A stretch of DNA of 64,000 bases from Candidatus Latescibacterota bacterium (GTDB lineage: Bacteria > Latescibacterota > UBA2968 > UBA8231), in contig CBDFJF010000001.1 in the NCBI GenBank assembly GCA_965248265.1, positions 1,440,001 to 1,504,000 on the forward strand, in the 5' to 3' direction. The position numbers and the translations under genes are program-made. The notes under the pieces are model-generated. The model saw nothing but the letters and a program-made list of their open reading frames with translations. It was not told the origin of the DNA and ran no database searches. Below are positions 38,074-41,890 of the stretch, in pieces (position 1 is the first letter of the stretch; every line of letters begins with the position of its first letter).

Positions 38074-38937
38074 TTAGCCCTGGCCCTGTTCGACCCGATC
38101 GCGTCGCGTGGTCCTCTCCCCATTCGTGGGTTGTCCCCCCTGGGGAGGTTGGTCAGGTCGGACACCCTCCGGTGGCTCAAACCCGGATCGTTGGCCCGGG
38201 GGGACGTCACCCTGGGTGTCGCCACCCCTTCTCCCTCTGCCACCCCCTGAGCGCTCGGGAAGACTGGCGGGATCGAGAAAACCGGTGCCGGGGTGCAGCT
38301 CACGCCACACGTTCCAGGTCGTGTACACAGAGGGCATTTCGCCTGTCCTCGAACCGGCGTAGTCGCCGGAAATGCTGGTCATGGCGATGTCGCCCTCAAG
38401 ATGATACCAGAGACTCTCCGTCTCCTCGTCGAAGAGCACGAAAGTGTCCTCGTAGAGAATTCCGACAGATGCAAAGGTCAGGATCTGTCCCTCTACCTCG
38501 CGGCTGTACACGGCAGCCAGATTGGCGCGGGGTCAGTAGGCAACAGCGATGTAGTCGTCACCAAAGTGGCCATTGGTTACCTCGATGCCGGTAAGTGCGT
38601 CGAGCGAATAGGCTCGGGCTGAGCCGTTCATGTTCACACCGATAACGACGGAATCGTCGTCGTCCGTCGGGTACCCGGCATCTCCCGGGTACAGCATCCC
38701 TGGATCCGAAACAATGGGAAACGAGCCGATCCCACCGCCTCCAGTAAAGTCGGAAGAGTGCATACCCACCTCATCCCGAGCAAAGGTGAGATCCCACGCC
38801 CTTCCGGTGCGGTCTTCGAAGGTGTCAGGTCCATCTCCGGATGCAAGGACGATCAATTCCTCGGAATGTTGACTGCAACCGATGACCAGTGCGCCAAGAA
38901 CCGCACCGAGGGGAGAGAGCAGGTGACATGACCTCAT
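38074..38937 (-). CDS. DUF3179-family lipoprotein, probable selenoprotein (TGA 38533-38535 read as Sec)
   Basis: ORFs 38533..38937 and 38074..38511 share a frame: VIGV...ARAY...IAVAY-[TGA]-PRANLAAVYSREVEGQILTF...LFDEETESLW. The TGA sits at the Cys of the family YCP motif; lipobox LVIGC. Confidence 0.8.
38495..38532 (-). promoter_or_regulatory. SECIS-like hairpin directly 3' of the in-frame UGA
   Basis: GGCUG/CAGCC stem (38502-38518) with loop CCGUGUA starting 19 nt after UGA; possible lower stem CCCCGCG/CGCGAGG. Confidence 0.6.
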
Positions 38938-38952
38938 CGCTAATTCTCCTTG

Positions 38953-39792
38953 TCAATACGAATACGATATACCCAGTCCCCACGCATGACCGGCGCTCAC
39001 ATTCTCTCCGGCCAACACCGATTCCAGGGAGACCTCCATCCAAAGAGGGCCACGGGCGCGGAATCCCGTGATGAGACCCAGCTTGGTGAAATTCCCTTCG
39101 GAGACCTGCACAAGACCCGGCTCTGCCAATCGGGCATTTCCACTGAGCGTTTTACTGTTCTCCAGGTAGGCCTTGAACGAGAGCCGATTTGAGGGTGTGG
39201 CACCTACCTCTCCGCTGTAGCTGATCTGATTCGAAAAGGGCCCACCGCGAACGCGGTATCCGGCCTCTGTCCCTAGGTAGAGCGGCAAAGGGTAGAATGA
39301 CCGGGCCGCCAGAACTCTTAGCTCAACATCCGCTTCTCCCGTACCCAGCGCCGGGGTGATATCATCGTCGTAGGAGGTGGGGATCTTCACGCTCATATAA
39401 GGGGACAACACGAACGGTTCCCCTACAAGTTCGTACTTGGCGCCGAGCACGACATCACCCAGACCACTCGTGTTTAAACGCAGGACGTTATGGCGAACGT
39501 TGCTGTCCGACCGCAGTGATGACCCACTGAGTTGGGTGATCAAGGTGAGATATTGGGTGAGGCCATATTCGATGTAGAGGAAGCCCTGACTCGCCTGAAA
39601 CTCGGAGCCATAGATCGTGACAGGCTGACGATCGCCGACGTCATCAAACACTTCATCCGAGCGGTAGAAGATGCTGGAGAGTTTGGTGTAGGCGTGACCC
39701 TGCGGTTGCGCCCAGGCGCCAGCCGAGACCAGTCGAGGAATCGCTAATACGACGAGGACTGCTATGAGCTGAAAGAACCTGCGCAGCGTCAT
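38953..39792 (-). CDS. Putative outer-membrane beta-barrel protein
   Basis: GGAGG SD; signal peptide ending AGAWA; YIEYGLT and GLGDVVLGAKY; C-terminal alternating GLGISYSY. Confidence 0.7.
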   Translation of the reverse strand: MTLRRFFQLIAVLVVLAIPRLVSAGAWAQPQGHAYTKLSSIFYRSDEVFDDVGDRQPVTIYGSEFQASQGFLYIEYGLTQYLTLITQLSGSSLRSDSNVRHNVLRLNTSGLGDVVLGAKYELVGEPFVLSPYMSVKIPTSYDDDITPALGTGEADVELRVLAARSFYPLPLYLGTEAGYRVRGGPFSNQISYSGEVGATPSNRLSFKAYLENSKTLSGNARLAEPGLVQVSEGNFTKLGLITGFRARGPLWMEVSLESVLAGENVSAGHAWGLGISYSY

Positions 39793-39885
39793 GGAAAGCC
39801 TCCACCGTGTCGACGTTTGTGCGCATCTCACCAACAAGTGTTAGACCCATGAGGGGGGCGAGACGTTTAATCCTGCCCGAGCAAA

Positions 39886-41229: not shown

Positions 41230-41673
41230 TCAGATAAGCAGAGAGCCGGCATTCACGTGCAGTGTGGCGCCATTGATGTAAGTGGAGCGCTCGGACACCA
41301 GGAATAACACCGCGTCCGCTAACTCTCTCGGGGTGCCTTGACGTTTCAGCGTCGACGCTTCGGCGAACTTCCTTTTCTCGTGGTCGCCGAAGCTGTCAGT
41401 GATCGGTGTGTCGATGGTTCCTGGTGCAATAGCGTTGGCCAGAATTCCCTCGAGGGCAAATTCCTGAAGTTCGTCAGCCACATCCGTCTCAACCACCGAA
41501 CACTTGGTCTGAGAATTGTCCTCGACGAGTCTTCGCGTCTTCTCAGCGCCTGCAGCGTCCACATCCGCGATGACGATCCCATTGGCGCCGGCTTCTGCCA
41601 GGACTTCGGCCACGGCGCGGCCGATACCGGACCCTGCTCCCGTGACGATGGCCGTTTTTCCGGAGATATCCAT
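41230..41673 (-). pseudogene. SDR oxidoreductase with in-frame internal deletion
   Basis: TGAGSGIG...TDVADE is joined directly to LQEFALEGILANAIAPG; NNAG, catalytic Ser and YxxxK are absent; 147 aa. Confidence 0.8.
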
Positions 41674-41890
41674 GGAGACGATAAACGGGGTTCTCGAAAG
41701 CACTGACAAGGGGATAGGTGTACGGCGCTTCACACGACACACCCCACCGTCTTGACCAGATCCATTCTCGAAAGCTAGATTGGCAAACTCGCCTGCAGAA
41801 CCTGACAACCAAGCTCCGGGCAATGCAATCACACCCAGCTGCGCCTGCTGCGTAAGATGGAAACCCGCGAGTACTACTTAGTGAGTACCC

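Follow-up and report, generated by a model that had tools for sequence, protein, structure and literature searches.

In the 64,000-nucleotide (nt) stretch of a Candidatus Latescibacterota genome analyzed here (contig CBDFJF010000001.1; "the window"), a gene on the minus strand at 38937..38074 almost certainly uses an in-frame UGA, codon 135, to encode selenocysteine (Sec), as judged by comparing its sequence with those of its relatives. We consider it very probable that this is a true selenoprotein gene with the architecture of a lipoprotein carrying one DUF3179 module. The preliminary description of this stretch had read two open reading frames (ORFs), 38533..38937(-) and 38074..38511(-), as one frame split by a TGA, and this proved correct: the TGA at 38535-38533 is the sole interruption, and translation of 38937..38074 on the minus strand with TGA as U gives a product of 287 aa with a single U at position 135 and a TAA stop. 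The match to the Pfam family DUF3179 (PF11376) spans the TGA (E 2.2e-31; 109.8 bits vs. a gathering score of 27), and NCBIfam holds no family model for the window protein. The gene comprises the following features:

38074..38937, minus strand: whole short, single-repeat DUF3179 gene, probably encoding a selenoprotein, with a lipoprotein signal (287 codons plus TAA at 38076-38074; the five paralogues align over the full length)
38875..38937, minus strand: signal peptide with lipobox L-V-I-G-C; Cys21 is predicted to be lipidated and to start the mature protein (from the translation, by inspection)
38269..38721, minus strand: DUF3179 module, residues 73-223, matching the first half of the Pfam profile only (positions 4-149 of 292)
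38533..38535, minus strand: in-frame UGA, codon 135, predicted to be read as Sec (same column in paralogues and relatives)
38501..38519, minus strand: hairpin of the selenocysteine insertion sequence (SECIS) type encoding L-A-A-V-Y-S-R, 13 nt after the UGA (nucleotide conservation)
38077..38256, minus strand: C-terminal low-complexity tail, residues 228-287, rich in Gly/Pro/Glu/Arg, with PEGxxP-type repeats and the conserved end ERTTRRDRVEQGQG (translation and orthologue fragments)

Decoding of the in-frame UGA and the hairpin behind it

The genome (7.32 Mb in two contigs) has nine DUF3179 genes, i.e., four full-length ones without a stop and five short ones with one in-frame TGA each. In all five short paralogues this TGA lies within V-A-(V/Y)-A-Y-U-P at the same column. 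A profile built from the five paralogues was run against the window's genome and 40 related ones, which gave 27 matches of at least 230 bits in 14 of these 41 genomes. Each of the 27 contains a single TGA, and two of them have a TAG in addition. A pattern scan with one genome per species yielded 79 loci that are labelled as Latescibacterota (the nearest), Krumholzibacteriia, Calditrichota, KSB1, Bacteroidota/Cytophagia, Gemmatimonadota, Handelsmanbacteria, Nitrospirota, and Desulfobacterota, the latter including an Olavius algarvensis Delta 4 symbiont. Across the collected loci, short-form hits of at least 150 bits have TGA at this column in 117 cases and Ser in one, and the long DUF3179 genes of the same loci have TGC or TGT there, in motifs such as YCPLTNS or FCPLTGTG. 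The TGA had previously been placed at the first Cys of YCPLC; the column stands, though YCPLC is one version of the motif and the long paralogues of this lineage read CPLT. Protein conservation runs on beyond the UGA across phyla.

All components for Sec decoding are encoded in the genome: selA (560.9 bits vs. a curated cut-off of 267.9), selB (332.8 vs. 242.25), selD (352.2 vs. 125), and selC in the form of a tRNA-SeC with anticodon tca that was detected by ARAGORN. The selD gene, which lies outside the window on contig 2 (1010876-1011799, plus strand; locus L014), itself contains one in-frame TGA and encodes a Sec-containing selenophosphate synthetase. Among 2535 open frames of at least 400 codons, TGA closes 1487, TAG 631, and TAA 417; TGA is thus the commonest ordinary stop in this genome, and the code is therefore not reassigned. 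It is very improbable that a reassigned code or SECIS-independent read-through would put Trp, Gly, or Cys at the UGA, as might be suggested by three whole database entries with W at the Sec column (P0002, P0004, and P0005). The 1487 long frames ending in TGA, including the own ends of two of the short paralogues, speak against it, as do the dedicated hairpin and the presence of selA/B/C/D. In addition, the W entries still have an intact LAAVYSR(E/R) hairpin peptide and would most simply be gene-caller translations under a table in which TGA encodes W.

Most other protein database entries are halves cut at the TGA. The N-terminal halves (133-134 aa) are up to 96% identical to the window protein, the C-terminal halves begin at a spurious "MYSRE", and fragments that are 96% and 92% identical to the window protein break precisely at the UGA codon. 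Close relatives are many in metagenomes, and a 68% identical orthologue on a Latescibacterota chromosome (L056) keeps the TGA. Such split entries (e.g., P0006 with 134 aa and P0034 with 145 aa), and the rank of TGA as the commonest stop in this genome, are what one would expect if the TGA were a true stop, leaving a pseudogene or two small genes of 134 aa and 145 aa. However, five paralogues and 99 distinct sequences spread over many phyla are broken at this very column, conservation extends over both halves as a single domain that is predicted to fold as a unit (see below), and the start of the supposed second gene is merely the GTG of Val143 inside the hairpin. Given also the nucleotide-invariant hairpin and the full Sec machinery, we regard a true stop as extremely unlikely. 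Public gene calls split this gene and dozens of its relatives or render the TGA as W, so that the selenoproteomes of Latescibacterota, Calditrichota, KSB1, and others are under-counted, with five copies in this genome.

Whole database entries include one true Cys form, P0003. An exhaustive profile search returned 8404 relatives at E<=0.001, and a residue survey of the best 150 of them found further whole short forms with Cys (P0069-72, P0076-78, P0081, and P0087) as well as relatives whose Sec column holds Q, D, E, R, or S (P0074, P0075, P0079, P0080, P0082-84, P0090, and P0213), so the Sec site is not universally needed. By these alignments, the family shows the classic Sec/Cys pair and some lineages have lost the residue altogether. 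In such Ser/Gln/Asp/Glu/Arg relatives the downstream peptide is no longer hairpin-like; a short-form locus without a Sec or Cys residue is L067:5002-5562.

The preliminary description had also pointed out a GGCUG/CAGCC hairpin after the TGA, which we find 13 nt downstream (5' arm UGGCUG 38519-38514, loop CCGUGUA 38513-38507, 3' arm CAGCCG 38506-38501) and conserved at the nucleotide level. The genome contains exactly five copies of the 17-mer GGCTGCCGTGTACAGCC, one for each short DUF3179 paralogue and all at a distance of 14 nt behind its in-frame TGA. Removal of duplicate fetches of the same DNA left 99 distinct 60-nt downstream sequences, and in all 99 of them the hairpin's Val codon is GTG and its Tyr codon TAC. 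Codons nearby vary, e.g., those for Pro (CCG 54, CCC 21, CCA 14, CCT 9), Gly (GGA 27, GGC 24, GGT 16, GGG 16), and Asp (GAC 48, GAT 46), and neighbouring Val codons outside the hairpin also use all synonyms.

The stem exists in two versions. The first, with GCT GCC and thus UGGCUG/CAGCCG around a 7-nt loop, is found in 67-68 of the 99 sequences including the window; the second, with GCG GCT and GCGGCUG/CAGCCGC around a UGUA loop, is found in 28-29, mostly from Desulfobacterota and Nitrospirota. Both Ala codons switch together in the second version, shifting the 5' arm by one codon. Pair 25-39 is G-C in 85 sequences, G-U in 11, and A-U in three; in these A-U pairs a non-synonymous change of GCT to ACT is accompanied by AGC to AGT, i.e., U at column 39 accompanies A at column 25 in all three cases. 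The Cys forms are relaxed at the corresponding peptide (LTALYQRE, LTAVYKRE, LAAIYERV, LAGVYEST), and the frozen L-A-A-V-Y-S-R-E of the Sec forms therefore reflects a constraint on the RNA, not on the protein.

Several results weigh against a functional RNA element at this site. The folding energy of the 71-nt stretch is not special (z -0.39; 65 of 200 shuffles are as stable), covariation in the first stem version is weak (38 of 500 shuffles reach the score) with other measures and the second version not above shuffles, and Rfam gave no match at E<=10. Moreover, the set of 79 loci is biased to hairpin-bearing genes because the peptide AAVYSRE was one of the two patterns used in the scan. The weak formal covariation arises because the hairpin barely varies, and in the aligned sequences the significance of the hairpin rests on conservation, not on folding energy. 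In the decoding mechanism, which is well supported overall, the hairpin 13 nt downstream would recruit SelB with Sec-tRNA(Sec), and UGA 135 would be decoded as Sec; since the hairpin lies inside the coding sequence, the peptide L-A-A-V-Y-S-R would be frozen.

A one-module lipoprotein with a possible Rieske-like fold

The lipobox LVIGC occupies residues 17-21 after a hydrophobic stretch, as seen by inspection of the sequence (lipobox consensus [LVI][ASTVI][GAS]C), and Cys21 at its G/S-C position is invariant in all five paralogues. This lipobox points to a window product that is exported and anchored to a membrane. The motif at the Sec residue is U-P-R-A and offers no resolving Cys, just as had been described initially: besides Sec, the only cysteines are Cys4 in the signal peptide and the lipobox Cys21, and the mature protein is without any Cys other than the latter.

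The tail of about 60 aa, noted earlier as Gly/Pro/Arg-rich, corresponds to residues 228-287 and is kept in orthologues; it is missing from the other four paralogues. Orthologue fragments show that it ends in a conserved ERTTRRDRV(D/E)QGQ(D/G) and that the number of repeats is variable. In the fragments P0037-P0052, there are between none and about five PEGF(E/Q)P-like units, and the last 13 residues are near constant. This constant end is possibly a short linear motif. Among the five paralogues, the window gene diverges most (40-45% identity), and its clade has U-P-R-A in place of U-P-L-V, ASVG(I/M)LYED in place of ASGWTYxxT (in a loop aligning with Rieske box 2), and TFA in place of THA. These remodelled surroundings of Sec suggest a different substrate or partner for the clade.

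The window gene falls short of the full-length, 292-position (two-module) DUF3179 profile, and the other four short paralogues match profile positions 6/12/27-149/151 only. Long DUF3179 proteins contain two stretches that match the short-form profile (e.g., 387366-387818 and 387945-388310 on contig 2 of the window's genome), and so do most of the best 150 library proteins of 8404, with three to four stretches in some and six in one 1587-aa protein. In the second stretch, the residue at the Sec/Cys column is Y, D, H, N, E, or A, with Cys in one case (L048). Read this way, the Pfam DUF3179 domain comprises an internally duplicated module, of which the short form has one copy together with an N-terminal segment of its own, DRTGxxWD..A. 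One module might pair with itself and so mimic the two-module domain; a complex prediction with two copies of the Cys homologue P0003 scored 0.01, which decides neither for nor against such pairing. Relatives with four to six DUF3179 modules include P0068 (1587 aa), P0073 (1004 aa), P0109, and P0169, and the number of modules per chain ranges from one to at least six.

All 90 aligned short forms match PF11376, and the model of the mature domain (residues 22-230) that was built from their alignment has a predicted local distance difference test score (pLDDT) of 93.0 and a predicted template modelling score of 0.87. VIA-align, a fold search independent of Foldseek, returned Rieske-type entries in rows 1-44 (one with an uninformative title), comprising Rieske iron-sulfur proteins, ferredoxins, oxygenases, a NirD-type subunit, and respiratory or photosynthetic complexes with a Rieske subunit. 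Other comparisons count against this likeness: Foldseek found no PDB match at E<=0.001, a Pfam scan at E<=10 left all 90 members without a hit to PF00355, and an hhalign comparison with 20 Rieske domains of this lineage was non-significant (probability 0.3%, E 0.19). A profile search of PDB sequences gave no hits at E<=10. The weak hhalign alignment places Sec on cluster Cys-1 and SGWTY (G-W-T-Y) on HGWxF (G-W-x-F), with Leu/Arg on His-1, Leu/Phe on Cys-2, and Ser/Val on His-2, and we keep it only for its agreement with the fold search. On balance, the model leans toward a Rieske-like fold that retains only the first ligand position; with the other three cluster ligands replaced, no 2Fe-2S cluster would therefore be bound.

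Partner channel, ArsS linkage, and possible function

Two features lie immediately upstream of the DUF3179 gene:

38946..38951, minus strand: Shine-Dalgarno-like AAGGAG between the stop of the upstream gene, which it follows directly, and the ATG 8 nt further on (sequence inspection)
38953..39837, minus strand: upstream co-oriented gene of 294 aa, predicted 12-stranded outer-membrane beta-barrel of the COG4313/FapF type (structure model and Foldseek)

This channel gene ends 15 nt before the ATG of the DUF3179 gene, with AAGGAG in between. The model of its product (pLDDT 84.7) is a 12-stranded barrel, for which Foldseek found 4rl8_A (COG4313; E 1.4e-9, probability 1.00, template modelling (TM) scores 0.64/0.70) and FapF 5o67_B (E 1.5e-9). 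At the sequence level, no Pfam family scores above its cut-off (PF13557 reaches 14.8 bits, below the cut-off of 22, at E 0.03), and PF13557 is hit by three of 22 channel homologues with a best E of 0.0053. We examined the neighbourhoods of 83 loci, of which 62 extend for 1.2 kb or more to either side. In 21 of the 83, a channel homologue stands no more than 165 nt from the short gene, and 16 of these 21 homologues are on the same strand. The channel gene is the only one that the L056 orthologue locus has in common with the window neighbourhood. Co-transcription of the DUF3179 gene with the putative outer-membrane channel gene is strongly supported.

Some relatives are also linked to ArsS (TIGR04167; 432.7 bits vs. 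a cut-off of 300), which is a neighbour in eight of the 83 loci. ArsS is single-copy in the genomes that have it. Of the 11 own-family genomes with ArsS, seven have it no more than 2.2 kb from a short Sec gene and one has it 6.7 kb away; it is near a long form in one and on another contig in two. On contig 2 of the window's genome, a long DUF3179 gene, a short Sec DUF3179 gene, and ArsS stand in a row (75518-78498, minus strand; loci L022 and L172), and a gene for a DUF255-thioredoxin with DsbD_N on the opposite strand converges on this row. The linkage recurs in Desulfobacterota loci as well; related genomes are non-independent. ECF sigma factors recur in 10 of the 83 loci, and a DUF6785/DUF6784 membrane protein in five loci and at a contig-2 paralogue locus (L173). 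This protein of 650-720 aa is encoded at L173:3162-5117 and L056:10316-12301 and also in L068, L077, L087, and L126, and in the window's genome its gene immediately precedes the one for the channel beside one paralogue. Beyond channel, ArsS, and DUF6785/DUF6784, the neighbourhoods of the genome's other eight DUF3179 genes have no common theme. Elsewhere in the window, a 200-aa ORF at 41230-41832(-) matches short-chain dehydrogenase profiles in two separate pieces (N-terminal positions 1-61 and C-terminal positions 160-234) and looks like such a dehydrogenase with its middle missing or a mis-set ORF.

The product would be an exported lipoprotein with one DUF3179 module, i.e., half of the Pfam domain, followed by an unstructured repeat tail. 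The module would be held at the membrane surface in the periplasm and present Sec at the tip of the Rieske-like fold, in the position of the first cluster Cys, with its lone selenol as the only reactive group. We tentatively propose, as a possibility that falls short of an even chance, that the selenolate captures or passes on a soft electrophile entering via the partner channel, with metals, metalloids, and organo-metalloid or chalcogen species as candidates. A binding role is favoured because there is no resolving residue and Sec apparently sits at a former metal-cluster site, because sister paralogues are linked to ArsS, and because relatives with a carboxylate or amide at the site are more readily reconciled with binding than with redox chemistry.

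Nearly as likely, though doubtful in its own right, is that the selenol serves as the catalytic nucleophile of an envelope redox enzyme (a reductase or peroxidase), which would depend on an external thiol or a partner protein for its recycling, given that no resolving Cys is present in the mature protein. Most catalogued prokaryotic selenoproteins are redox proteins according to the excerpted text of PMC1976440, the UxxC/T motif catalogued for the family (see below) resembles a redox motif, the Sec/Cys pair pattern is typical of catalytic sites, and the thioredoxin-like DUF255+DsbD_N gene lies beside the contig-2 ArsS/DUF3179 operon, if on the opposite strand. However, there is no resolving Cys or Thr at position +3 (Val in ca. 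78 of 99 sequences and Ala in the window), no conserved thiol-redox partner gene stands beside the short genes, and the Q/D/E/R relatives are incapable of selenol or thiol chemistry.

The proposed capture of an electrophile faces objections of its own, since the window copy has no ArsS nearby, the contexts of the other paralogues are heterogeneous, and Sec is dispensed with in the relatives that have Q, D, E, R, or S in its place. In its most specific form, the proposal would be that the short forms are Rieske-derived, exported single-selenol lipoproteins whose cluster tip has been repurposed for one selenolate, and that together with the channel (and with ArsS, the arsenosugar radical S-adenosylmethionine enzyme, in sister operons) they capture or traffic arsenic or selenium metalloids or organo-metalloids, with the window's clade (Arg near Sec, an altered second loop, and a PEGxxP-repeat tail whose conserved end is charged) as a sub-type that has its own substrate or partner. 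We consider this whole chain improbable as it stands; if true, it would constitute an unrecognised envelope pathway.

Comparison with known systems

The SECIS element of E. coli fdhF is a hairpin inside the coding region with a spacer of roughly 11 nt. The window's element resembles this bacterial type in its location in the coding region soon after the UGA, in the G/U of its apical loop, and in its spacer of 13 nt, but differs in its short stem of five to seven pairs and in having two registers of the 5' arm between lineages; SelB binding is predicted. Compared with the Rieske [2Fe-2S] domain (PF00355; ferredoxins, bc1/b6f subunits, and cluster-less NirD-type proteins), the weak alignment puts Sec at Cys-1 and aligns the G-W of box 2. 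In contrast, the CxH...CxxH ligands would be reduced to the first Cys position (as Sec), there is no sequence-level match, and the short DUF3179 forms have the specific extra N-terminal strand-helix segment DRTGxxWD..A. The partner's predicted 12-stranded barrel is similar to the COG4313 channel 4rl8 and the FapF amyloid-secretion channel (5o65, 5o67) with TM scores of 0.61-0.70, but its PF13557 score is sub-threshold.

The family itself and its decoding mechanism are already known. The preliminary description had regarded Sec-containing DUF3179 proteins as known and their function as not, in agreement with the excerpted review tables of PMC9312934 and PMC13188914, which list DUF3179 as a selenoprotein family with the motif UxxC/T; a full-text literature search for "DUF3179" returned nothing on structure or function. 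In its excerpt, PMC9312934 credits Sec-DUF3179 to Zhang & Gladyshev 2007 (its reference 63; PMC1976440), whose excerpted text describes six new selenoprotein families under other names and does not contain the name DUF3179. The window gene shares with the catalogued proteins the Pfam family, Sec at the family's first-Cys column, and a SECIS inside the coding sequence, and the hairpin peptide is common even to long Sec forms (WUPLC..AIVYSRELDG in L040 and L041). Unlike them, it has one module instead of two, a lipoprotein signal, a conserved channel partner, and the repeat tail of its clade. Its motif also deviates from UxxC/T in that position +3 is Ala in the window and mostly Val (GTN in 78 of 99) or Ala in the short forms, with neither C nor T among the short forms listed, whereas the long Sec forms L040 and L041 do carry UPLC. 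What is new here is thus the one-module architecture, the motif without C or T, the channel partner, the possible Rieske ancestry, and the clade-specific tail, and the one-module form, the possible Rieske ancestry, and the channel and ArsS partners are leads that make the function of these selenoproteins testable.

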